IMG/VR virus record: IMGVR_UViG_3300045522_000058 | Direction: 5' to 3' (one strand) | Source: a virus | DNA length: 64,000 nt | Shown: in pieces, positions 2,140 to 55,087 of the stretch | Position numbering within the stretch: the stretch's first letter is position 1 | Layout of the letters: each line of letters begins with the position of its first letter | Translations under genes and position numbers: made by a program | The notes under the pieces: model-generated | Seen by the model: the letters and a program-made list of their open reading frames with translations, nothing else | Database searches by the model: none | Told to the model about the DNA's origin: nothing

Positions 2140-4125
2140 GCGCTCTCCGACATCTGAGGTTGACGTTTCAATTAAATCTGATAAGAATTAATACCTAAGT
2201 TGGGCTTGTGGTTGATATTTGATCAGAACATTTGAAACACGTCTGGATTTAAGAGCGGATGATTTGCTTCCGCTCGTAGACGTGTTGGATCAATATAGTT
2301 CGGTTATGAACCATACCCAAAGAGTTATTCATGCCAAGCTGAAAGCGGGTCACGTCTGGACTGGTGATTTACATAAAAAGCTCTATCGTGATCTTGGAAT
2401 CGGCTCCGTTCATCTGAATATGGCATATCGCCAGTTAATGGCTAAACTTAGCTCCATCAAAGAACTGGCAAAATCTCGCGTGAATGACCTGAAGGACAAG
2501 ATCAAGTCTAAAGAAGGTGAAATTGGCAAGAAGAATAAGGCCGTTGCTAAAAACAAGCGCGACACGCAAAAACTGCAGGCTGAGATCGCGATCTGGAAAG
2601 AACGTGTTTTGCGTTTTAAAGCGGCAGTTAATGATGGGCATACAGATTCAGAAAAACATCTGAAACGTTCGATCAATGAATATTATGCTTATTTAGATCA
2701 GTTGCGTGAATTAAAGGTAATTCGCAAAAATCTTGAATTTGCCCTGCACCAGAATAAACGGCGTTTGGGTAATTTGCGCGATAAACTGAAAATAGCGGAA
2801 AAAGCAGTTTCCAATCCATCGATCTGCTTCGGAACAAAAAAGCTGTTCAAACAGCAGTTTTATCTCAAAGAAAATGATTTTAAAGATCATAAAGAATGGT
2901 CTGAGGCATGGAGAGCCGCGCGTAACAGCCAATTTAAATTTGAGGGAGACTCCTTACAAGCGGGAGGTAATTTATTTGCCAGATTATCTGTCAGAGACGA
3001 TGGCCTGTTTGACCTTGAACTGCGTTTACCGGAGAAGCTGAAACATCTGGCTCAAGAAACCATTCGTAATGGCCATGTCAATTTGGTGCGTTTTTATGGT
3101 CTGTCGTTTAATCACGGTTCGGATGTTGTTCGTGAAGCTCTGAGCAACAAACAGCCTGTGACTGTTTCATTCATCAAGGATGAAACATCATGGAAGGTAT
3201 CGGTCACCGTTGATCAGAAGCTCGAATGGATTGAGCCTGATTATAGCTGTGGTGCATTGGGCGTTGATTTTAATGCCAATCATGTCGCTGTTTCGCTCAT
3301 CGACCGTTTCGGAAACCCAGTTAAGTCATGGACATTGCCACTTAACACATATGGTTTGAGTGGTGACCAGGCTCAGGATTTAATCCGCAAATGCGCCAAG
3401 CAGATCATCGACATTGCGTTGGAATATGGCGTGCCAATCGTCAGCGAAAAGCTCGACTTTGCACGTAAGAAACGGGAATTAAAAGCTGAGGATGGGGCTA
3501 AATACGCCCGTATGTTGTCAGCCCTGACCTATAGCGGCTTTGACGCAGCATTGGCTTCAGCCTGTGCGCGTTTCCGCGTTGCACACAGGCGGGTTAATCC
3601 CGCCTATACCTCTTTGATCGGTCGTGTGAAGTTTGCTAGTAGTTATGGCTTGAGCGTCCACACAGCTGCCGCAGTTTCCATTGCTCGCAGGGCAATGGGA
3701 TTTTCCGAGGGATTACCTCGTCAGTTGAATGGAACAGTGATTGTTCCATTCAACAATTCCGAACATGTCACCTTTGCTCTACCTGCAAGGAAAGAAAAAG
3801 GCGCTGTGGCTAAGGCCAAGCCTGCAAAGCATGTGTGGTCGGAATGGAGAGAGTTGAACAAGGAAATGATAAAGGCTCATGCAGAGCAAAGGCTGTCTGG
3901 ACGAGTTAAACGTTCCAGACCCTTCACCCGTCGTCACTGGCGGGAGTGTGGTGGTGCATCTTATCTGCACCATGGTCTTTCTGGATTAATCGGCCGTGCC
4001 GTGACGATCCAGCTTAGTCGTAACGGCCAAGGGCTGGCCAAGCGCCAGGAAGCAATTCCTGAAATGAAAATCCAGCAAAGAGGTCAAAACACAGTTTCAA
4101 CCTCTTTGCTGGATAGCCATAACAA
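2140..4125 (+). mobile_element. TnpB-only IS200/IS605 (IS1341-like) element, ~1986 bp
   Basis: ATAACAA at both 2133-2139 and 4119-4125; perfect 15-bp subterminal hairpin at 4070-4084/4100-4114; encodes TnpB and no TnpA; removal restores the host ORF. Confidence 0.8.
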
Positions 4126-4156
4126 TCCTGTCGGCGTCGGTCCTTCCTATATTTGA
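2219..4156 (+). CDS. tnpB: IS200/IS605 accessory TnpB-like RuvC protein (645 aa) with long coiled-coil insert
   Basis: RuvC-I GALGVDFNANHVAV, RuvC-II IVSEKLDF, VNPAYTSLIG...SVHTAAAVSIARR; HVWSEW tail; no Zn finger. Confidence 0.85.
   Translation: MIRTFETRLDLRADDLLPLVDVLDQYSSVMNHTQRVIHAKLKAGHVWTGDLHKKLYRDLGIGSVHLNMAYRQLMAKLSSIKELAKSRVNDLKDKIKSKEGEIGKKNKAVAKNKRDTQKLQAEIAIWKERVLRFKAAVNDGHTDSEKHLKRSINEYYAYLDQLRELKVIRKNLEFALHQNKRRLGNLRDKLKIAEKAVSNPSICFGTKKLFKQQFYLKENDFKDHKEWSEAWRAARNSQFKFEGDSLQAGGNLFARLSVRDDGLFDLELRLPEKLKHLAQETIRNGHVNLVRFYGLSFNHGSDVVREALSNKQPVTVSFIKDETSWKVSVTVDQKLEWIEPDYSCGALGVDFNANHVAVSLIDRFGNPVKSWTLPLNTYGLSGDQAQDLIRKCAKQIIDIALEYGVPIVSEKLDFARKKRELKAEDGAKYARMLSALTYSGFDAALASACARFRVAHRRVNPAYTSLIGRVKFASSYGLSVHTAAAVSIARRAMGFSEGLPRQLNGTVIVPFNNSEHVTFALPARKEKGAVAKAKPAKHVWSEWRELNKEMIKAHAEQRLSGRVKRSRPFTRRHWRECGGASYLHHGLSGLIGRAVTIQLSRNGQGLAKRQEAIPEMKIQQRGQNTVSTSLLDSHNNPVGVGPSYI
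3920..4145 (+). ncRNA. Candidate omega (re)RNA overlapping the tnpB 3' end; guide ~4126-4145
   Basis: Nested stems (GGCCGT..ACGGCC, CAGGAA..TTCCTG, 15-bp hairpin) run up to the element end. TnpB guide RNAs are known to derive from the right end plus flank. Boundaries approximate. Confidence 0.5.
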
Positions 4157-6670: not shown

Positions 6671-6841
6671 TCGGGTACCCTTTAATTTGAAACAGATGTC
6701 AGAAATAATGATCTTTGAGATTAATGTAATTAACGTAATCTGCAAATTAAAAATACGCAAAAAACTGGTAATATTCGACTTGGATAATTCAAAATATCGG
6801 CCACACTATCATTAGTTCATATTTATATAATTTGGAGCGTT

Positions 6842-7840
6842 TTGTCGGTGGCTTTTAGATTTATTGATTTGTTTGCAGGTATAGGTGGCATTCGCACCGC
6901 TGCTGAAATAAACGGCGGCCAATGTGTATTTTCTTCTGAAATCAATGAAAGTGCCGCTGCCACATATCAATTAAATTATGGTGAGAAACCCGTTGGTGAT
7001 ATAACAAAGGTGAACGAATCAGATATTCCGTCACATGATGTGTTGTTTGCGGGGTTTCCGTGTCAGCCATTTTCGATCTGTGGCTTTAAAAAAGGTTTTG
7101 AAGACACTCGTGGAACGCTGTTTTTCCATATAATGAGAATTGCACGTTACCATAAAACGAAATGTTTAATTCTAGAAAACGTTAAACATCTGAAGGACCA
7201 CGATGGTGGCGACACGATGAATGTCATCATTAATACTCTTGTTGAATCCGGATATCATGTTTCCTACAGTATATTAAATGCTGTAAATTTTGGATTACCA
7301 CAAAACAGAGAGAGAACAATAGTCGTCGCTTCTTTGGATAAATCATTTAATTTTGACAATTTAATTCAAAATAAATCTATGAGCATGGCCTCGATACTTG
7401 AGAAAGATGCGGAATTTGAATATCTAAATGCGAACGATTACACACTTCTATCTGATGACGTTATTAAGAGACAGCCCCTTTCGGGACTTCGTTTCGTAGG
7501 ATACAGGAACCGAAATTTAAGAAAAGTCGGTGTCCGTGAAGGTACAGAACATCTATCCAGGGTCCATAAGCAACCAAATAGAATTTATTGTTCATCTGGA
7601 ACACATCCTACGTTGGCAGCTGGAGAAAGCTCTGGACGTTATTGGATTTTCATTGATGGCAAAGTTAGAAAACTGACGATGAAAGAGTGTTATCGTCTTC
7701 AGGGATTTGGAGACAATTTTATAATTCATCAGAACCCAACTGCAGCATATAAGCAGATCGGAAACTCTGTTCCAGTTCCAATGATCGCTGAAGTCGTGCG
7801 TTCGGCTGTTGAGCAGAGGCTGATAGGCGGCCGTTCGTAA
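6842..7840 (+). CDS. dcm: DNA (cytosine-5)-methyltransferase, orphan
   Basis: FIDLFAGIGG, AGFPCQPFS, ENV, QNRER, YKQIGNSVPV motifs; no adjacent endonuclease gene. Confidence 0.95.
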   Translation: MSVAFRFIDLFAGIGGIRTAAEINGGQCVFSSEINESAAATYQLNYGEKPVGDITKVNESDIPSHDVLFAGFPCQPFSICGFKKGFEDTRGTLFFHIMRIARYHKTKCLILENVKHLKDHDGGDTMNVIINTLVESGYHVSYSILNAVNFGLPQNRERTIVVASLDKSFNFDNLIQNKSMSMASILEKDAEFEYLNANDYTLLSDDVIKRQPLSGLRFVGYRNRNLRKVGVREGTEHLSRVHKQPNRIYCSSGTHPTLAAGESSGRYWIFIDGKVRKLTMKECYRLQGFGDNFIIHQNPTAAYKQIGNSVPVPMIAEVVRSAVEQRLIGGRS

Positions 7841-7865: not shown

Positions 7866-8073
7866 AAAATAATCCGCCTGTGCGGCGGTTAACGAGAAGA
7901 AAAAATCGCTACGCATCGTTAGTATATTCAGAGCCGCCTGTGCGGCGGTTAGCCGTTCGTGGAGTTCTTCTGCGATGGGCACTGTATTCAGAGCCGCCTG
8001 TGCGGCGGTTAGCCACCGGATGGAGACGCCTGATCGATCAGGCAAATTCAGAGCCGCCTGTGCGGCGGTTAGC
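7866..8073 (-). CRISPR. Type I-F-like CRISPR mini-array: 4 repeats (28 bp), 3 spacers (32 bp)
   Basis: Repeat GCTAACCGCCGCACAGGCGGCTCTGAAT (minus strand) at 7926-7953, 7986-8013 and 8046-8073, with a degenerate copy at 7866-7893; exact 60-bp period; CCGCC/GGCGG stem in the same register as the Cas6f substrate. Confidence 0.9.
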
Positions 8074-8280
8074 TCTCCCGAAAAGAGGGATAATGTAGGC
8101 GCAGCAACAATTTCAAAGAACAATAGGGTCAGACCCCAATTTTTTGAAGGTACAATAAAACCCAGTAGATTCAAGGCTTATTTTTAATCGCAATAAAATC
8201 GGGGACTGACCCTATTGTTAGAAAAATATTGTTAGATATCCTTAAATAAACGCAACAATAAGCTTATTATTGTCACAGTA
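8074..8280 (-). promoter_or_regulatory. CRISPR leader with long inverted repeat
   Basis: AT-rich region on the non-degenerate side of the array; IR 8119-8143 / 8195-8219 (23/25 match). Confidence 0.6.
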
Positions 8281-8337
8281 TTGTTGACTTCTTCATTTGA
8301 AATTCGTAAAGAGTTTTCAATGAAAGGAACCACCAAA

Positions 8338-10209
8338 ATGGTTTTAAATCCCCTCACCGTTCTCAAGCAGTCATTTGGTTTTGATGGTTTTCGTCCTTTG
8401 CAGGGCGAAGTCGTAAGTCATGTTGTTGATGGCAATGATTCCTTGGTTCTGATGCCTACAGGTGGTGGGAAATCTATTTGTTATATGGTGCCATCCATTT
8501 GTCGCGATGGCGTCGGAATCATTGTTTCTCCATTGATCTCTCTAATGCAGGATCAGCTGGATTTTCTAGAGTTTCATGGAATTGAAGCTGCAACGCTTAA
8601 TTCGACGGTTCCGGCTACTGAACAAAAGGAAATCAAAGCTCGTCTAATCTCTGGCGATCTCGAACTTCTGTACGTGACACCTGAGCGTTTTTCCAATGCG
8701 CAGTTCCAGAAGCTTCTGGGTGAAATCGATATTGCACTGTTCGGTATCGATGAAGCGCACTGTGTGTCTCAGTGGGGTCATGATTTCCGTCCTGACTATC
8801 GAAACCTCGGTCTTCTCAAGCAGAAATTCCCGAATGTACCTGTTGTTGCGGTCACTGCTACAGCCGATCCTGAAACCGTTGAGGACATTCTGACGTCTAT
8901 CGACATTGCAGATGCTCAAGTTTTCAAGTCCAGCTTCGACCGCCCGAACATTTCGTACTCGATCAAGCCAAAGAGCAAAAAATCTAAAGCGCAGATCATC
9001 GACTTCCTGAATGCTCGTAAAGGCGAGAGCGGTATCGTTTATTGCATTGGCCGCAACACCGTTGAGAAGACCGCTCAGTGGCTAAAAGATGAAGGCTTCA
9101 CCACTCTCGCATATCATGCTGGTATGTCTGATGCTGATCGTTATGACAACCAACAGGCATTCATGGATGGCCAGGTGGACATTCTGGTCGCCACTGTCGC
9201 CTTCGGTATGGGTATCGACAAGTCAGACATCCGCTTCATTGTTCATCCTGATTTGTCGTCGAGCCTCGAAGCCTGGTATCAGGAAACAGGTCGAGCTGGC
9301 CGTGATGGTCAGAAAGCAGATACCCTGACGTTTTATAATGCGGGCGACATTTCCAAGCGCCGTCGCATGATCCATAAGGGCAACGGGTCTACATCGAATA
9401 AGCGTACAAATTATGCGAAACTCGATGCCATGCTTGGTGTGTGCGAGACAGTATCGTGTCGCCGTAAGGCCGTCCTGAATTATTTCGGTGAGACCTATGC
9501 TGGTTCGTGCGGCAACTGCGATATCTGCGTGACGCCTGTTCAGACGCGTGACGGCTCGGCCGAGGCCAAGGCTGTCATCAAGCTGTTGAATGAAGTTGGC
9601 GAGCGTTACGACGCTTACGACATCGTTTCGTTTGCCTGCACCTCGACCTCGAAGATCAAGGACGCGAGCGTCGCCATCCGTAACGAGTTCAACGCGGTCG
9701 ATGCCAAGGACCACGAATGGTCTTCGTATGTCCGTCAAATGCTGTCGTCGGGCCTTCTGCAAGTTAATCTGTCCAACTACGGCTACATCAGCGTGACTGA
9801 AGCTGGCCAGGCAGTTCTCAATGGTGCTGCATTCGAACTGAATGCCGAGAAGGTTCAGATTGAGACTTCCGTAAAAAAAGTGGGTAGTAAGCCGTCAGCT
9901 CGTGCGGCCACGTCGCGCACACCTCGCAAGCCCCGTGAAGACGGTGACTACGTGTCGTCCGGTTCAAGCCGTCGCAAGTCGTCGAAGGGGTCACCACTTC
10001 TGGAAGCTCTTCGTCGGGAACGTAACCGTATCGCTCGTCAGCTGGGCCTGAAGAAGTATTACGTTATTCACGACAGCGCCCTCAAGGAAATGTCCGAACA
10101 GCGTCCGCGCAATGGCTCAGAGATGATGTTAATCAAGGGTGTCGGGCAGGCAAAGCTCGACAGATTTGGCACCGAGTTCCTGAGCGTGATCAAGCGCTAC
10201 GCGGCGTAA
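8338..10209 (+). CDS. recQ: RecQ family ATP-dependent DNA helicase (helicase, RQC, HRDC)
   Basis: [42 protein letters not shown], Zn-binding CRR..CGNCDIC and C-terminal HRDC; start after AAAGGA. Confidence 0.95.
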
Positions 10210-10407
10210 GAGTTGCGTAACGACAGTAATGAAATTATGGGATGCGCGACAGCTTAGGTCACATCTCGCAAGGTTTATGGTGATTCAACCCAGGATCAAG
10301 AACTATATGAATTGCGCTCTGTTATAGATTTTAAACCGAAAACTTGTTGACAGTATCGGTTGTAAAAGGTGAAATGTTAATTAAGACAAAAAGCAGGTGT
10401 AGCGATT

Positions 10408-10733: not shown

Positions 10734-11579
10734 TTACATCCGTGGCGTCGCATATGATGTGTCTTCATCGTTGTTTTCCGACGTCATTAGGCTGCCAACC
10801 CTGAATTCTTCTCTGTATGCGAGCTTGGCGCTATCGATCCCGGTCCATGCGTTTTGCCACGATAGGTTCTGACGTCCTTCAACCTTCCGGTGTTCAAATA
10901 TCGACTGAAATGGGCGACACAATTCGTCTCGAAGGATAATAGTGCCTCCATCGGGACCAAGCCATTTTACAAATGAGTTTGTGAATTCAGGATCGTTACC
11001 CTTTAGAGCGCGACTAAGGATAGTGTTGAATAGTTGCAGCTGATCAGGTTGTTTTAGGCGAAGTCGGACAAATGCTATCGCGAATTTCACATCTTCCGAA
11101 TTGATATCGGCATCCTGATCGACCTGCTTCGGGACGTGGGCATGTAGTGTCCTCGGGATTTCCATATTGGCGCTTTCGTAAACTTCTTCCTTGGTTAAGG
11201 TTAAACCATCTCTCGGGATGTAAATGTCACCTTTAAAGTCGACGGTCACCTTCATGACGAATGCAGTTGGCTCCCATGTTTCCAGTTGTGCTAGAGCATC
11301 GTTGCTGAGATCACTGAGATAATCGGAATGGTCTCGACAAATCACGCCACGGGCTTCCAATTCGGTTGGCTTGATGAAGCTACTATAGGCCTCGTGAAAG
11401 CTGGAGGCATTGCCGACAGGAGACAGATATGGAACCGGAAATTCATTGCCGATATCCTGAAGCATCATAAAGCCTTCAAAAAGCACTGGGAGAGTCATGT
11501 TACGCCTTTGATTAATTTCATTGGATGAAATTGACTGCATTTGTGGCAAGATACAATTGCGATAGCTCACTTTGCGCAT
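10734..11579 (-). CDS. Hypothetical protein
   Basis: 281-aa ORF; real start probably MTLPV (~11498). Confidence 0.65.
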   Translation of the reverse strand: MRKVSYRNCILPQMQSISSNEINQRRNMTLPVLFEGFMMLQDIGNEFPVPYLSPVGNASSFHEAYSSFIKPTELEARGVICRDHSDYLSDLSNDALAQLETWEPTAFVMKVTVDFKGDIYIPRDGLTLTKEEVYESANMEIPRTLHAHVPKQVDQDADINSEDVKFAIAFVRLRLKQPDQLQLFNTILSRALKGNDPEFTNSFVKWLGPDGGTIILRDELCRPFQSIFEHRKVEGRQNLSWQNAWTGIDSAKLAYREEFRVGSLMTSENNDEDTSYATPRM

Positions 11580-11706
11580 GTGAACGGATCGCGGGTGGTG
11601 GCAAAGGTCATATTCCTACTCTTATTTATATACTTAGACATTATTGACGACGATTGTTTATTCAATGACCATATTTGTATTCCTTAACGCCAATCAGGTA
11701 GCAAAT

Positions 11707-12213
11707 ATGCATCCAATCATTTTTGAACTTTCCTTTCAGGCAGCTATCGTTGTTTGCAACAGAGGTCGCGTATGGGAAGCAGCAGAAACTGTCGGACATC
11801 TAAAAAACGATGATCTAGATGCATTACAGAAATCTCGATTATCAGAATTTGAAGAGGTGCTGAATCCCCTTATTGCTATTGAAGACGAGTTCGGCAGAGG
11901 TGCTTGTCTTAACCTGAAGATGGAGAAAGAAATGAATTTCTTAAAGACTATTATGTACGAGTATGATCCTCCTCTGTATTCACCCGAACATTTTCGCAAT
12001 GCTGAAAGATACAGGAAAATTAGTGGCGACAACTGGGTATGGACGGAATGGGCAGCGCCTGGATATGAGAACCATAACCCCTACATAGATCAGACGAGTG
12101 CAACGGTTGAAAAAATGTACAGTCTGAACCTAGGTATCAATGATGAAGGTGCGAAAGTCGAGTTTCGAATGGAAAACGACAACCATGAAACTCGACGTCG
12201 CAGTCTTCACTAA
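11707..12213 (+). CDS. Hypothetical protein
   Basis: ORF 11644-12213; CAGG upstream of ATG 11707. Confidence 0.6.
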   Translation: MHPIIFELSFQAAIVVCNRGRVWEAAETVGHLKNDDLDALQKSRLSEFEEVLNPLIAIEDEFGRGACLNLKMEKEMNFLKTIMYEYDPPLYSPEHFRNAERYRKISGDNWVWTEWAAPGYENHNPYIDQTSATVEKMYSLNLGINDEGAKVEFRMENDNHETRRRSLH

Positions 12214-12293
12214 TTTAATTTCGCCATATTTGATATTTCATCAATTTGGATGCTTCAGCGAACAACTCGCGATGTCCGCCTTTTTGCTTTTTA

Positions 12294-12671
12294 TTAGCGT
12301 TTGTTGTCGAAGGAAAACTTGCCTGCGCCAGTGGTTACGAGCAACAGGAAGACGAAGCTAAACAGGATGGACGCATCACCGCCATTGGCAACCGGATAGA
12401 AGCTCTGAGGTGCATGTGCGATGAAATAAGCGAAGGCCATATGGCCGGATAAAATAAAAGCGACAGGACGTGTGAAAAGGCCAACGACCAATAGTACTCC
12501 GCCTGCGACTTCGAGAATAGCTGAAATCAGTGAGAGAGTTGATAGTGTATCAGGGCCAGCAACGGGAAAGCCGAATAGTTTTTGCGAACCGTGAGCAAAA
12601 AAGAGAAGCGCTGTCATAATTCGCAGAACGGCAATTGCGTAAGGCTGAAATGAATTTAGTTTTTCTGTCAT
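12294..12671 (-). CDS. DoxX family membrane protein
   Basis: LRIMTALLFFAHGSQKLFG, EVAGGVLLVVGLFTRPVAF, NGGDASILF, GAGKFSFD. Confidence 0.9.
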   Translation of the reverse strand: MTEKLNSFQPYAIAVLRIMTALLFFAHGSQKLFGFPVAGPDTLSTLSLISAILEVAGGVLLVVGLFTRPVAFILSGHMAFAYFIAHAPQSFYPVANGGDASILFSFVFLLLVTTGAGKFSFDNKR

Positions 12672-12816
12672 TAATAGCTCCTTGCATTGATGATGAAACA
12701 TCATTCATCGAAATTATTATCGAAAACAATCAACAAAAACGTGATTTCCGAGGTGACAAACTGTCAATAAATTGATAACGGGATAAATAAATCGGTAGAT
12801 TTAATTCGAACCGATA

Positions 12817-19847: not shown

Positions 19848-20312
19848 ATGACCGCTCTTAAGACGAAGATTGTCGCCGAAAATCGCAAGGCTCGGCACAA
19901 CTATGAAATCATTGAAACTTTTGAAGCGGGAATTGTGCTGACTGGAACAGAAGTCAAATCCTTGCGGAATGGGTCTCCAAACATCGCCGAATCCTATGCA
20001 AGCCCTGAAGGTAACGAAATCTGGATCATTAATTCTTATGTTCCAGAATATACACAAGGCAATCGGTTTAATCACGATCCACGTCGCCATCGCAAAGTGC
20101 TGCTAAGCCGTCATGAAATTAACAAGATGCAGAATGCGGTTGCCCGTGAGGGCATGACCCTTGTTCCATTGAAGATCTATTTCAATGAAAAAGGTCGTGC
20201 AAAGGTGGAGCTTGCCATCGTAAAAGGGCGCAAGAACCACGACAAGCGCGAAGCGGATAAGAAACGTGATTGGCAACGCGAGAAGTCGCGTCTTCTCAAG
20301 GCTAATAGTTAA
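19848..20312 (+). CDS. smpB: SsrA-binding protein SmpB
   Basis: [52 protein letters not shown]. Confidence 0.97.
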
Positions 20313-44003: not shown

Positions 44004-44864
44004 TTATCGGCCACATCCACCAAAGGTGTCGCACTTGCCTGAGTTCCCGAGCATATCTTCTTCATCCGGTGCATCTTCAAGATCAACGGCATCAGGCATT
44101 GGAACTGGTGCCTTATATTTTCCTCGACCGCTATTCGCCCATTTGCGAACTTCGTCAGCACCTGCAGCGCCCATATGACGTTGAGGTCGGAACATTGTCT
44201 TGCCGACTTCCTGTTCGATTTCTTTCACTGCCTGCCAGTCGCTATCAGTAAAGCGCTGCATGTCTTTGCGATTAGAATTAATGCATCGGCACTCACGTGA
44301 ACGATGCGGTAGAACTTCCCATCCAGCGCGCTCAATGAGGGAATTGCGTGCGTCTTCTGAATATGTGGCAAAGGGAGCGACCATCATACGACCGCCGTGG
44401 TTCATTGATTTGATAATCCATTCAGGAAATTCAGCGCGATCCTGACTTTCTTCTCGTCTGACACCAACCAAGCAGATCGCACGACAATCAGGGTCAAATT
44501 CCTCAAGCCATCGCTGACCTGGTTCGATCTTTAGAATGTAAGAACACCATTGGTATCGTTGTGTAGGAAAGCCCTTTTTATCTCTTGCAAGCTGCCTGAA
44601 ACCAATGCTCGAAGTCCTGTACGGCGTGAAGCCAAGGGAACGAACCCACTCTTCACCCTTCTCGACGCGTTCTTCCCAGCCGTCGGCCATCCAGCCAGTG
44701 TCAGTAAATACGACAGCAACGCCTTCAATCTGGTTTTCGTAGGCCCATTGAATGAGAGCAATACTATCATTTCCATAGCTGACGAAAATTACGAACCTAA
44801 TTGGTTTAATCAAATCGCGTTCGTGTTCACGCTCTATAATATCAATGGCGTCAATATTTTCCAT
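44004..44864 (-). CDS. PAPS reductase-like (PP-loop) protein
   Basis: FVSYGNDS, FTDTGW, FPTQRYQWCS..LKIEP, VGVRREESQDRA. Confidence 0.8.
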   Translation of the reverse strand: MENIDAIDIIEREHERDLIKPIRFVIFVSYGNDSIALIQWAYENQIEGVAVVFTDTGWMADGWEERVEKGEEWVRSLGFTPYRTSSIGFRQLARDKKGFPTQRYQWCSYILKIEPGQRWLEEFDPDCRAICLVGVRREESQDRAEFPEWIIKSMNHGGRMMVAPFATYSEDARNSLIERAGWEVLPHRSRECRCINSNRKDMQRFTDSDWQAVKEIEQEVGKTMFRPQRHMGAAGADEVRKWANSGRGKYKAPVPMPDAVDLEDAPDEEDMLGNSGKCDTFGGCGR

Positions 44865-47179: not shown

Positions 47180-50100
47180 TTGCTTGGGGTTAAGATGAAG
47201 ATCACCACGAAGAATAAGTCTTTAACGCTCGCGTCCACTGCCGTCGCGTTATTGAGCGGAAGCGTCCTTTATTCCAACGCTGAGCCATTTCCTATTTACT
47301 CTGCTGTAGATAAGGCCGCGCTATCTGTTTCAAACGGGTCTAATGGAGGGTACTCATTTGGTTCAGAGTACTCAATCCAAGCGTCAACCTCTGGGCCAGG
47401 TAAGAGAGCATGGGGAGTGTTGGTTTCGAAAAGCCCAACAAGCCCCTCCACGCTTTCTCTCAATGTTTTTAACTCAGGTTCATTACTTATTGAAACCAGT
47501 GGGGACAAAGCTCATGGCGCTCAAGTTGGAGCTAAGGGCGGGAACGCAGACGGTTCGGACCAATCTGTACTTACAATAGGCGAACGGATTGTCGTGAAGA
47601 CAGCAGGTGCTGATGCGTTCGCACTTCACGCGATTGATGGCGGTACGATCAACAGCTCAGCCGACATATCTACAAGCGGAAAGAACGGCTTTGGTGCGTT
47701 CGCAGAGTCCTATTCAAAAATAAACCAGACGGGCGGCTCTATCATAACCACTGGCCAGAATGGTCACGCACTGATCGCAAACAATGATCGCAATGCAGTT
47801 GGTGGCAAAATCGTAGCAACTGATACAACTATCGAAACCTCAGGTGATTGGGCACATGGTGCATTCGCTGACAATGGTGGCGATATTGAACTGAATGCTG
47901 GCACGATCACTACAATGGGCGCTCGCGCATTCGGCATTCTGGCGTCTAAGAATTCGATTGTGACATCAAGTGCAGCGGTTACAACAAATGGTGCCAAAGC
48001 GCATGGTGTACAAGCTGGCGCTAACGGCAGCACTGCTGATGGCTCAGATAAATCGGTGATAACACTGACCGAAGGTGCATCGGTTACCACAAAAGGAAGC
48101 GATGCTTTTGGTATGCATGCCATTGACGGCGGCATTATCAACAGCTCGGCTGACATTAATACAGCTGGAAAGAACGGCTTTGGCGCGTTCGCTGAGTCTT
48201 TCTCTGAAATCAGTCAGACTGGTGGCAGGATTTCCACGACAGGCGTGAGTGGTCATGCCCTCGTTGCGAACAACGACCGCAATTCGCAGGGCGGAAAAAT
48301 CGTAACCACTGACACAGAAATCGTGACTATTGGCGATTGGGCGTATGGCGCATTCGCTGATAATGGTGGCGATATCGAGTTAAATGGCGGCAACATAGAT
48401 ACAAGCGGAGATCGCTCGTTCGGTCTGTTAGCAGCCAAGAATTCTACGCTGACTTCTAGTAGTCAGGTTACTACATCAGGATCGAAGGCGCATGGCGTTC
48501 AAGCTGGTGCTAACGGAAATACTGCGGACGGCACAGATCATTCAGTCATAACGTTGAACGAGGGTTCCAATGTTGTCACATCCGGCAACGATGCCTTTGG
48601 TCTTCATGCAATTGACGGCGGTAAGATTGCCGGAACTGTTTCAGTTTCGACTTCTGGCGTGAATGGTTTTGGTGCATTTGCCGAGTCATATTCCACAATC
48701 GATCTTGCCGACTCTGAAATCGTCACGACTGGCGCAGATGGCTATGGATTGATTGCCAACAATGACAGAGGTGCTGACGCGGGCGTTATCAACGCAACGA
48801 ACACCAATGTTGTCACAAACGGAAAATTCGCTTCTGGTGTTTTCGTCAAAGATGGCGGTGCGGTAAATTTCACAGGTGGTTCGGTCACTGCGAATGGTCT
48901 TGACGCTGCGGCTTTGGAGATTAATGGAAGCGGCACTATTGCCGTTGATGGCACCGTTCTTAAGAGTGTTCAGGGTCCATCGATCCTTGTCGGCCTCTCT
49001 GCTTCTGACGACATCGCAAACGTTTCGTTTGGCGCTGGAACAGTCGCAACAGCGAACAACGGTGTGTTGGTCCAGGTTAACCGTACGGGCGAAGGCGAAG
49101 ACGGTGTGATGAACCTGACGTTGAAGGCAGGTTCAGAATCCAGCGGCGACATTGTGGATCTTGACGAAAAAGGATCGGGAGCTACCCACGTTAAGATTGA
49201 AGAGAATGCCAAATTCAATGGAAAAATTTCCGGCATTACCAATCTGAACACAGAAGCAGGTACACAACTTTCGTTTGCTGAAGGGACAGAAATAGAAGGA
49301 AACGTCGTAGGCACGGGAACTCAGCTGACTTTCCATGCAACCGGAGCGACAATTGGCGGCGATGTTGAATTGAACAACGGTTCCGTTACGCGCGGTGGTG
49401 CTATCGGAGCGCCAATTATTGTTGGCGGAAGCGTTGCTGTTGATCAGACGTCCTTTATGGGTGGAAATTGGAACATTGGTGGTAATCTGACCGCCAATGG
49501 AACGCTACGACCTGGGAATTCCATTGGCACAATGACCGTCGCAGGGGACGTTACATTTGGTGCTGGCTCCGTTTACGAGGTTGAAGTTGCAGGCGATGGG
49601 ACCAGTGACCGTATCGACGCCGCAGGCAAGGCAATCCTGAATGGTGGCCGTGTTGACGTATATGCATTGGATACTAAGGTCAGCTATCAGGACGGCCAGA
49701 CTTATACGATCCTGACCGCAGGCGGAGGCGTTGATGGCCAGTTCGATGAAGCTGTATCCAAATCTGTTTTCCTGACAACATCCCTTGGCTATCAGGCAAA
49801 CCAAGTGGATTTGACCGTTGGTCTGGTTGCAGACCCAATTGACCCAGTTGATCCGGAAACCCCGCCTGTTGTCTTCGAGAAGGTTGCACAGACAACCAAT
49901 CAAGTGGCAACTGCTCGCGCATTGGATGGCCTGGAACAGAGCGGATCGTCGCTAGAACTGTATAACTCGGTTCTCTTCCTGACGAATGAAGACGAAGCAC
50001 GGGAAGCCTTTAACCAACTGTCAGGCGATACGCATGCATCGGTAAAGACAGGCCTGATCGATACAGCAAATTTGACTGCGGATGCGATCAACAATCGCTT

Positions 50101-51034
50101 ACGTTCTGCCTTCGAAGGCGTGGCTGCGAAGGACGCCCCTGTCCTGTCGTTCGCTCAGTCACCGAAAGGCAGTGCACCGCAACCGTTCGAAGCCGTTGCG
50201 CCTGCTTCATATGATTACGGCGTCTGGGCCTCAGGTTTCGGTTCTTGGGTTGATCACGACGGCAACTCGAATGCAGGTGGCCTGAAAACTTCAACTGGCG
50301 GCTTCTTGTCCGGCGTAGATGTAGGATTTGCCTCTGGATGGCGTCTCGGCGTTGTCGGTGGTTACAGCCAGACCGATCTCGATGCCAAGGGACGTTATGC
50401 TTCGGCAACGAGCGACAATTGGCATCTGGGCATCTATGGCGGTAACCAGTGGGGGCCAATTGGACTGCGTGCAGGTCTCGTCCATACTTGGCACAGCATC
50501 GACTCTTCGCGATCTGTTTCCTACTCAGGCTTCAGCGACAGCCTTGCTGCTGATTACGATGCCCGTACCTTCCAGGCCTTCGGTGAGTTGGGATATCGCA
50601 TTGATACATCTGTGGCTGCGTTCGAGCCATTTGCCAACCTCTCGCACGTTCGTTTGCACACCGATGGTTTCACTGAACAAGGTGGAGCGGCAGCTCTGTC
50701 TGTCGATAGCGAAACGACTAGCACAACATTCACAACACTCGGATTGCGCGCCTCGGCCCCTTTTCAGTTCGGAGCAACCAAGGCTAACTTGAAGGGAACT
50801 CTCGGCTGGCGTCACGCCTATGGTGATATCACGCCGGAATCCTCACAGTTCTTTGCAGGAGGAAGTGCCTTTACAGTGGAAGGAACCCCGATTGCCAAGG
50901 ACGCCGCTCTCGTAGAGGTTGGGTTCGATATGGCAATCACTGAAGCCTCGACATTTGGTGTGAGTTACGTTGGGCAGTATGGCAACGGAACTACGCAGAA
51001 TGGCTTCAATGCTAGCTTGAATGTGAAGTTCTAG
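47180..51034 (+). CDS. Autotransporter (type Va) with beta-helix passenger
   Basis: Signal peptide; Gly/Thr/Ser/Asn-rich repeats; GTLRPGNSIG; C-terminal beta-barrel ending LNVKF. Confidence 0.95.
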   Translation: MLGVKMKITTKNKSLTLASTAVALLSGSVLYSNAEPFPIYSAVDKAALSVSNGSNGGYSFGSEYSIQASTSGPGKRAWGVLVSKSPTSPSTLSLNVFNSGSLLIETSGDKAHGAQVGAKGGNADGSDQSVLTIGERIVVKTAGADAFALHAIDGGTINSSADISTSGKNGFGAFAESYSKINQTGGSIITTGQNGHALIANNDRNAVGGKIVATDTTIETSGDWAHGAFADNGGDIELNAGTITTMGARAFGILASKNSIVTSSAAVTTNGAKAHGVQAGANGSTADGSDKSVITLTEGASVTTKGSDAFGMHAIDGGIINSSADINTAGKNGFGAFAESFSEISQTGGRISTTGVSGHALVANNDRNSQGGKIVTTDTEIVTIGDWAYGAFADNGGDIELNGGNIDTSGDRSFGLLAAKNSTLTSSSQVTTSGSKAHGVQAGANGNTADGTDHSVITLNEGSNVVTSGNDAFGLHAIDGGKIAGTVSVSTSGVNGFGAFAESYSTIDLADSEIVTTGADGYGLIANNDRGADAGVINATNTNVVTNGKFASGVFVKDGGAVNFTGGSVTANGLDAAALEINGSGTIAVDGTVLKSVQGPSILVGLSASDDIANVSFGAGTVATANNGVLVQVNRTGEGEDGVMNLTLKAGSESSGDIVDLDEKGSGATHVKIEENAKFNGKISGITNLNTEAGTQLSFAEGTEIEGNVVGTGTQLTFHATGATIGGDVELNNGSVTRGGAIGAPIIVGGSVAVDQTSFMGGNWNIGGNLTANGTLRPGNSIGTMTVAGDVTFGAGSVYEVEVAGDGTSDRIDAAGKAILNGGRVDVYALDTKVSYQDGQTYTILTAGGGVDGQFDEAVSKSVFLTTSLGYQANQVDLTVGLVADPIDPVDPETPPVVFEKVAQTTNQVATARALDGLEQSGSSLELYNSVLFLTNEDEAREAFNQLSGDTHASVKTGLIDTANLTADAINNRLRSAFEGVAAKDAPVLSFAQSPKGSAPQPFEAVAPASYDYGVWASGFGSWVDHDGNSNAGGLKTSTGGFLSGVDVGFASGWRLGVVGGYSQTDLDAKGRYASATSDNWHLGIYGGNQWGPIGLRAGLVHTWHSIDSSRSVSYSGFSDSLAADYDARTFQAFGELGYRIDTSVAAFEPFANLSHVRLHTDGFTEQGGAAALSVDSETTSTTFTTLGLRASAPFQFGATKANLKGTLGWRHAYGDITPESSQFFAGGSAFTVEGTPIAKDAALVEVGFDMAITEASTFGVSYVGQYGNGTTQNGFNASLNVKF

Positions 51035-53485: not shown

Positions 53486-53799
53486 CATTTTTCTCCCAAA
53501 GCAGTTTTTCAGTCCACAATGACAACGTGACACAGCCATCTGCGAACCACCAACGATTTCACTATCGTTTTTTAAAAATGGTTTCTCTTCTAATATTCTG
53601 CAGTCATTTAACGCTGCATTGTCCATCGAATAGGCGATACTAAAATTAATATCTGACGAAACTTTCAATAAAATATTGTTTATCGATGGTTTAAATGTGC
53701 ATAAATAATGCAGATACTCTCACATTTTTTCATGTACACGATTGACAAGAATTAAATAATTGACTATCTATTGAAATGTCGATTGAGAGATTCTCTTAA

Positions 53800-54210
53800 A
53801 CGAATATGGTGCTAAACCGAATGAGTAATAGGTTTTCTGGACGCGGCTGCGACGCCGCCACCTCCACCATAAGCACTGCGACTTAACTCCCAAGAGTAGA
53901 ATTGGGTTGAGGGGAATTAAGTCTTAGCGGATAAAACCTATGTTGTGACGCCACCCAGGCGGACATGGCAGTGATGGTGAAACGCAGTGTTTATGATGGG
54001 GGTGATTTAGGTTCGACAGGAGCTGAAAGTCATCTCGTTGTACTCGGCATGATACCACCGCATCGGGTCAAAAATGTAGTTGCAAACGACAACTTCGCTC
54101 AGGGTCGTGCTCTCGCTGCCTAACCGCAGTGCGGGAGATCCGCTTTAAGTCCTTAGGGTTAGCACCTTAAGGCGGGGTTTGGTGGCACCTGGCAACAGAA
54201 CGCCACCATT
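53800..54210 (+). ncRNA. ssrA: Circularly permuted two-piece tmRNA (alphaproteobacterial type)
   Basis: 3' piece ends CCTCCACCA at 53869; intervening segment 53870-53997; 5' piece starts GGGGGTGATTTAGGTTCGAC at 53998; tag ANDNFAQGRALAA* at 54082-54123; terminator hairpin GGTGGC..GCCACC+T. The start coordinate is approximate. Confidence 0.92.
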
Positions 54211-54463
54211 TTTTCTTTAAAACCTCCCCCTCCTCAATGTCATGCGAGTAGTACACCCGTTTTACGATACGGTTAAATCCGTACTGCTAATATTGACGTT
54301 CGTAATGTGTGACTTCTGTGCTTATTAAACGATGCCTTATGGCTTTATCATATGAAGACCACCGAGATATTAATAAGCGATCATAAACCTTATTAAATAA
54401 TGTTGACGACAGTGGTAATATGGGAGACCATTTTATTACAAATCAATATTAAAAAGGATTTTC

Positions 54464-54926: not shown

Positions 54927-55011
54927 GCGGACTTGGCGAAATTGGTAGACGCAGCAGACTTAAAATTTGCCGATTTTAATCGTGGGGGTTCGATTCCCCC
55001 AGTCCGCACCA
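54927..55011 (+). tRNA. trnL: tRNA-Leu (anticodon TAA)
   Basis: GCGGACT/AGTCCGC acceptor stem, GCAGA-CTTAAAA-TTTGC anticodon arm, variable arm, GGTTCGATTCC, encoded CCA. Confidence 0.95.
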
Positions 55012-55087
55012 GGCCCCTTAGCTCAGTGGATAGAGCACCGGCCTTCTAAGCCGGGTGTCGGAGGTTCGAGTCCTCCAGGGGTCGCCA
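55012..55087 (+). tRNA. trnR: tRNA-Arg (anticodon TCT)
   Basis: GGCCCCT/AGGGGTC acceptor stem, CCGGC-CTTCTAA-GCCGG, GGTTCGAGTCC, encoded CCA. Confidence 0.95.

Follow-up and report, generated by a model that had tools for sequence, protein, structure and literature searches.

The stretch of DNA analysed here (64 kb, hereafter the window) carries, between a dcm and a recQ gene, four copies of a 28-nt unit at positions 7866-8073 (plus-strand coordinates), whose starts follow one another at exactly 60, 60 and 60 nt (Table 1). The copies that start at 7926, 7986 and 8046 are 100% identical and the copy at 7866 agrees with them at 21/28 positions, so the 28-bp repeats, 32-bp spacers and degenerate trailer repeat named in a preliminary description of this DNA were borne out. 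The three spacers, each of 32 nt, are mutually unrelated and have GC contents of 0.38-0.59. When both strands of the 64 kb were searched for matches to the repeat at 20/28 positions or better, these four sites were the only ones, which excludes chance, and 7866-8073 is a genuine CRISPR array with three spacers. Tandem Repeats Finder called nothing at 7866-8073, as is expected because the spacers differ. The array is identical, with the same three spacers, in a second assembly of 99.97% identity, and collapse of a longer array during assembly is unlikely since the two independent assemblies agree.

The transcript sense of the array is the minus strand, with the leader upstream and the decayed repeat at the trailer end. 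On this strand the repeat folds (-10.1 kcal/mol) into a 5-bp G+C stem at positions 6-10/16-20 that closes a 5-nt loop, with G20 just ahead of the cut site and the last 8 nt as a 3' tail, which is the form of a Cas6f hairpin and agrees with the register proposed earlier (stem 6-10/16-20, pentaloop, 8-nt handle); the 28-nt repeats and unique 32-nt spacers are likewise those of a type I-F array. The 8-nt handle of the window repeat is CUCUGAAU. In the trailer repeat the handle has decayed to ATTATTTT, and as it was swapped for the U-rich tract AUUAUUUU, the hairpin and its tail resemble a terminator too and scored terminator-like in a terminator scan. Repeats 1-3 begin with GCTAAC and the trailer repeat with GTTAAC, i.e., position 2 is C in all three and T in the trailer. 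New repeats are copies of the leader-proximal repeat, and the three spacers would thus have been gained once T had changed to C in the first repeat. This pattern suggests past spacer acquisition in the window's lineage by copying of the leader-proximal repeat. A perfect palindrome of 16 nt, GCCTGATCGATCAGGC, lies inside spacer 1; it has GATC at its centre and competes with the repeat hairpins in the minimum-free-energy fold.

Table 1. Positions of the array, its leader, the flanking genes and other recognisable features of the window
Feature	Position	Strand	Remarks
dcm, C5 cytosine DNA methyltransferase, trailer-side flank	6848..7840	+	86% nt identity to the gene preceding the array in L114
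Terminal (trailer) repeat	7866..7893	-	sense GTTAACCGCCGCACAGGCGGATTATTTT; stem-loop kept, handle decayed
Spacer 3, oldest, 32 nt	7894..7925	-	no match found
Repeat 3	7926..7953	-	same sequence as repeat 1
Spacer 2, 32 nt	7954..7985	-	no match found
Repeat 2	7986..8013	-	same sequence as repeat 1
Spacer 1, newest, 32 nt	8014..8045	-	16-nt perfect palindrome inside at 8028-8043
Repeat 1, leader-proximal	8046..8073	-	sense GCTAACCGCCGCACAGGCGGCTCTGAAT; fold computed
Conserved leader, ~140 nt	8074..8215	-	alignment A1 and pairwise alignment
25-nt inverted repeat	8119-8143 / 8195-8219	.	core ACCCCGATTTT ... AAAATCGGGGT, kept in 7/7 aligned leaders
recQ helicase, leader-side flank, divergent from array	8284..10209	+	81% nt identity to the L113 gene beside the leader
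smpB	19848-20312		window gene
IS1595 fragment	29422-29919		
PAPS-reductase-like gene	44004-44864		
Autotransporter	47180-51034		
Two-piece alphaproteobacterial tmRNA	53738-54214		
tRNA-Leu and tRNA-Arg	54927-55087		

Upstream of the array lies an AT-rich segment (8074-8280), which contains the conserved leader. Seven leaders were aligned (alignment A1), i.e., that of the window and those of the comparison loci L112, L115 and L116 (all three directly downstream of cas2-3) and L113, L121 and L110, and the window leader is a homolog of those that precede cas-adjacent arrays in this repeat family. It holds the block GTTCTTTGAAATTGTTG at 8105-8121, and the blocks that are invariant across the seven leaders include GTTCTTTGA and CTTG. 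A TTGAAT element (8169-8174) and a TACCTT element (8147-8152), 16 nt apart, lie between the arms of the inverted repeat and make a putative pair; judged from A1 they are likely the promoter, and a sigma-70 consensus scan of the leader called no site. The arms of the inverted repeat, about 50 nt apart, flank a promoter-like TTGA-16/17-TAnnnT element in 7/7 leaders (window, L110, L112, L113, L115, L116 and L121), and the inverted repeat may be the site of a regulator or of an integration-host-factor-type protein. In a pairwise alignment with L113, which belongs to a relative described below, the identity was ~87% over the proximal ~135 nt and the sequence further upstream could hardly be aligned; the rest of the intergenic region beyond the ~140-nt leader is not conserved. 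Conservation of the proximal part and not of the part upstream points to constraint on the leader during most of the time since the two lineages split.

No cas gene was detected around this array. A tblastn search of the 64-kb window with the I-F Cas set of L112 gave a best E of 0.55, and a Pfam scan of 50 window ORFs found no Cas family, so the array is an orphan within the 64-kb window, as had been read earlier from the open reading frames. About 30 of the 50 scanned ORFs match no Pfam family, i.e., the window is ORFan-rich; in addition to the genes of Table 1 it encodes a DUF285 repeat protein, a VIT-VWA protein and RING-domain proteins, and the best identity of its RecQ among 301 sampled alphaproteobacterial genomes is 46%. 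Over 15.7 kb the window agrees at 100% identity with contig Ga0485381_00007 of JGI 3300045179 (1,002,202 bp), and the proteins of the window are found on 139-152 JGI contigs, of which the longest has 1,002,252 bp. This replicon of ~1.0 Mb is either a reduced chromosome or a giant element. A 616-aa ORF at 2306-4156 gave a weak TnpB-related match (TIGR01766, E = 3.9e-9), with the RuvC-like motifs GVDFN...NPAYTS...HTAAA and no zinc ribbon. A link between the array and this element was considered and rejected, as they are 3.7 kb apart with four genes between them.

The family to which the array belongs was examined through its stem-loop and its handle. A genome scan (one genome per species, two copies of the 15-nt stem-loop core) gave 108 loci, nearly all of them with the classic I-F repeat GTT[CGA]ACCGCCGCACAGGCGGCTTAGAAA, and the sharing of this core with 108 classic I-F loci places the window array in the I-F family. 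The handle CUCUGAAU occurred in 0/108 of these loci. It differs at 3/8 positions from their dominant handle, CTTAGAAA, and is neither of the canonical handles CUUAGAAA and CUAAGAAA; a literature search on the handle sequence returned no relevant paper. A metagenome scan keyed on the 3' half of the stem plus the handle gave 13 loci, 11 of which are arrays of 60-nt period with 28-nt repeats ending in CTCTGAAT. In L112 the genes cas6f, csy3, csy2, csy1, cas1 and cas2-3 lie between two arrays with the CTCTGAAT handle. The same six genes occur in L124, L125 and L127, with csy4-csy3-csy2-csy1 on one strand and cas1-cas2-3-leader-array on the other, and the main array of the CUCUGAAU-handle lineage directly follows cas2-3. 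The divergence of the csy1-csy4 operon from cas1-cas2/3 was observed at L112:904-9267, L124:4983-13477, L125 and L127, where the start codons are about 20-80 bp apart. The type I-F-like assignment made in the preliminary description is upheld by the shared stem-loop core and by the I-F1 genes that the handle lineage adjoins.

The Cas proteins of this lineage are divergent. The identity of cognate Cas2-3 to proteins named Cas3f in the sources does not exceed 31%. In phmmer searches against PDB chains Cas6f and Cas8f had no match, and Cas5f matched Csy2 with an E of no better than 4e-8. Named members are Sinorhizobium meliloti (array repeat GTTGACCGCCATGTAGGCGGCTCTGAAT) and Roseibium, both annotated as type I-F. 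The divergent handle had been thought to define a variant subtype, and of that idea the distinctness stands, as the low Cas2-3 identity and the Cas6f and Cas8f without PDB matches indicate; the rank of subtype does not, since the gene set is the ordinary one of I-F1 and the named genomes are annotated as I-F. By sequence, CUCUGAAU is a tag of a divergent, mainly alphaproteobacterial lineage inside I-F. Some loci of this lineage depart from the common arrangement. S. meliloti L138:3403-10745 has csy1-4 and the same handle, with a Cas3 of 1057 aa that has no Cas2 domain and no cas1 called within 10 kb, and L137:7742-11711 has only small ORFs at the cas3 position; the two may be an adaptation-less or decaying variant. 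The cas-adjacent array at L124:13606-15920 has the handle CTCTGAAG, and the array at L121:11998-12565 has CTCTGAAT. L121 is part of a contig of 596 kb on which the Cas2-3 protein of L124 is encoded too, with no cas gene within ~12 kb of the L121 array, and the variants CTCTGAAG and CTCTGAAT may thus serve one system.

The site between dcm and recQ is also occupied by an array in a relative of the window (~80-86% nucleotide identity). L114 (Ga0182743) has a homolog of dcm (blastn identity to window 6820-7824, 86%), and an array trailer follows it after ~100 bp. L113 comes from the sample of L114; here 15 repeats, truncated where the contig stops, are followed by the leader and recQ (81% to window 8046-10222) and further on by homologs of window 10791-11499 and 12291-12649. 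The dcm-then-trailer order of L114 and the array-leader-recQ order of L113 together indicate dcm-array-recQ synteny in a relative whose array there has at least 24 repeats; when longer contigs bearing the relative's recQ were sought, only those of 3.5-4.3 kb were obtained. The all-array contig L117 has the same repeat as the relative and may add 24 more repeats. One old repeat of L114 begins with GTTAAC, like the trailer repeat of the window, and no spacer is common to the window and the arrays of the relative. A segment of ~790 bp, window 11500-12290, with an ORFan of 182 aa at 11665-12213, is missing from L113; it lies between a shared gene at 10734-11579 and DoxX at 12294-12704 and was either inserted in the window or lost from the relative.

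L116, from the same metagenome as L113 and L114, carries a partial cas1, cas2-3, a leader and an array whose repeat, GTTTACCGCCGCACAGGCGGCTCTGAAT, equals positions 5-28 of the window repeat. Its GC content is 42%, compared with 45% for the window; the cas contigs L116, L127 and L128 have 42-44%, and values of 49-60% were obtained for the lineage's other members. We infer that L116 belongs to the same genome as L113 and L114, with which it has the sample, the repeat and the GC content in common, and the relative probably has cas genes, from which its dcm-recQ array is remote. The conserved site with a large array in the relative argues that the window array is the ortholog of that remote array and not a mini-array of a mobile element.

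The preliminary description had placed the array among the mini-arrays that mobile elements use against one another or as RNA anti-CRISPRs. A giant extrachromosomal element of ~1 Mb would then borrow the I-F Cas proteins of its host against competitors, or its decoy repeat RNAs would soak up the Cas6f and Csy proteins of that host. Such an element would be in keeping with the many ORFs without a Pfam family and with the IS and TnpB elements in the window, and orphan arrays are common, enriched on plasmids and shorter than cas-linked arrays (PMC9071438). But the relative has a large array at the syntenic site, the full leader is homologous to those of cas-adjacent arrays, and the data show no host with a cognate I-F system that recurs together with the window; the smpB, two-piece alphaproteobacterial tmRNA and tRNA genes fit a small chromosome equally well. 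The three spacers, searched with E values of up to 10, matched no GenBank phage or PLSDB plasmid, and they had no match in IMG/VR, searched at full length with N at every sixth position and with a CC PAM plus the first 23 nt, so the earlier proposal to look for phage or plasmid protospacers with a CC PAM yielded none in these collections. In the 64-kb window no self-target lies within 10 mismatches, the two closest sites having 11 mismatches each, and among 138 fetched loci only the spacers' own copies matched at 23/32 or better. Of the 270 unique spacers of related arrays none matched the window or related loci at 25/32 or better, and the 2-kb array region matched phage and plasmid DNA only in short recQ and dcm fragments. 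With the conserved large-array site, the lack of targets in these searches and no co-recurring cognate Cas, we consider the mobile-element reading improbable.

The spacers also bear on a possible role against incoming cas genes. Almendros et al. (2016) are said to have described the orphan CRISPR4 array of E. coli, whose spacers target I-F cas genes so that an incoming I-F system destroys itself. A 'vaccination' array of this kind could be imagined for the window by analogy only, as a cas-less I-F array is kept here where relatives have I-F systems. Its spacers would target I-F cas genes, but with a threshold of 23/32 none matched the nine cognate cas loci among the 138 fetched (L112, L116, L124-L128, L137 and L138), or any other fetched locus. 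This result speaks against a CRISPR4-like role, which we regard as very improbable.

A more serious alternative is a working remote array, whose cognate I-F cas genes would lie at a different place on the 1.0-Mb replicon or on a further replicon of the cell. Many I-F genomes have such small second or third arrays, and the relatives hold cas loci away from the dcm-recQ array. The leader is intact and conserved, the full repeats are identical and the stem-loop is kept in 4/4 repeats; perfect repeats and a conserved leader are also what would be expected of an array in use. This possibility was examined by recurrence, with three homology searches in which Cas2-3, Csy3 and Cas6f of the relative were compared with a collection of 5.8 billion proteins. 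The searches found a small cognate clade, of which no homolog occurs on more than 15 contigs, against the 139-152 contigs for the window proteins; the comparison misses fragmented genes and cas genes outside the cognate clade. Since the window organism has been widely re-assembled, a cas gene of its own should show a similar recurrence, and by this indirect argument the cas module appears to have been lost from the whole organism. The array has only three spacers against at least 24 repeats in the relative, and the spacers are the same in two assemblies. A working remote array is on this evidence unlikely, if less so than the two readings above.

We therefore favour, as the probable explanation, that the window array is a contracted, cas-less relic of a remote array of a divergent alphaproteobacterial I-F lineage, left after loss of the cognate cas genes. 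In the ancestor, as presumably still in a relative, a long dcm-recQ array would have served a complete I-F system whose genes lay at another place in the genome. Cas1 and Cas2/3 would have inserted spacers at the leader end, and Cas6f would have cut after G20 of each repeat, so that the next crRNA bore the CUCUGAAU handle for Cas5f and Cas8f. In the lineage of the window, the cas module was apparently lost and the array shrank to three spacers. Without Cas6f and the Csy complex the array would have no immune function at present, and its record is best read as past activity followed by inactivity. With leader and repeats intact, the array could be transcribed, and the arrival of a cognate I-F module would probably make it functional again. 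We also considered that the array is kept in use, its transcripts being loaded by an I-F effector for the CUCUGAAU handle supplied in trans (from a co-resident element or from a mobile module of a partner cell) or acting as decoys. This is improbable; if it were true, the ORFan-rich replicon of ~1 Mb would be a long-term carrier of portable immune memory.

Orphan I-F arrays that outlive their cas genes are already well documented, and the window array by itself matters little. The handle CUCUGAAU would provide a simple tag for a divergent, mostly alphaproteobacterial I-F lineage, of relevance to repeat typers and to handle-based crRNA design; Cas6f and Cas8f of this lineage are too distant from the Pseudomonas proteins for sequence matching. 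The window and its relative form a natural pair, with one array site expanded in the relative and collapsed and apparently cas-less in the window, which could be of use for studies of array decay.

Compared with known systems, the array is unlike the short arrays of mobile elements in several respects. It shares with phage and plasmid mini-arrays and with RNA anti-CRISPRs (solitary repeat units) the short length, the absence of nearby cas genes and I-F-type repeats, but it has a ~140-nt leader homologous to those of adapting arrays and a large syntenic ortholog, has no detected target, and no phage or plasmid backbone can be recognised around it. Type I-F3 systems (CAST) have a short array beside tniQ-cas8/5-cas7-cas6 and a Tn7-like end, with a handle of the CUGAUAAU type. 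This reading was rejected for the window, which has no csy or cas6 homolog and no Cas family among its 50 scanned ORFs; its handle differs, and the cognate loci have cas1 and cas2-3.

The nearest counterparts are the orphan arrays of gammaproteobacteria. Orphan or remote type I-F arrays of Legionella pneumophila are reportedly described by Deecker and Ensminger (2020). Like these and CRISPR4 of E. coli, the window array has a 28-nt I-F repeat with a Cas6f hairpin, a small number of 32-nt spacers and a leader of its own; it lacks cas genes in its vicinity and occupies a fixed chromosomal site common to cas-positive relatives. It differs in its handle, CUCUGAAU instead of CUUAGAAA or CUAAGAAA, and in that no anti-cas spacers were found, and its host is an uncultured organism with alphaproteobacterial markers, whereas E. 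coli and L. pneumophila are gammaproteobacteria. With the I-F1 system of Pseudomonas aeruginosa PA14 (Csy, Cas6f/Csy4) it shares the repeat length, the stem 6-10/16-20, the pentaloop, G20 at the base of the stem, the 8-nt 5' handle and the 32-nt spacers, and the cognate lineage has the same six genes; the cognate csy operon, however, is divergent from cas1-cas2/3 and not co-directional with it. Named alphaproteobacterial I-F systems are those of S. meliloti (GCA_033713205.1), with the CTCTGAAT handle and the CCGCC/GGCGG stem, and of Roseibium sp. RKSG952. Their arrays are cas-linked, their repeats differ in the loop and at the 5' end and their GC content is ~60% against 45% for the window, while their Csy3 proteins are 52-55% identical to Csy3 of the window's relative.
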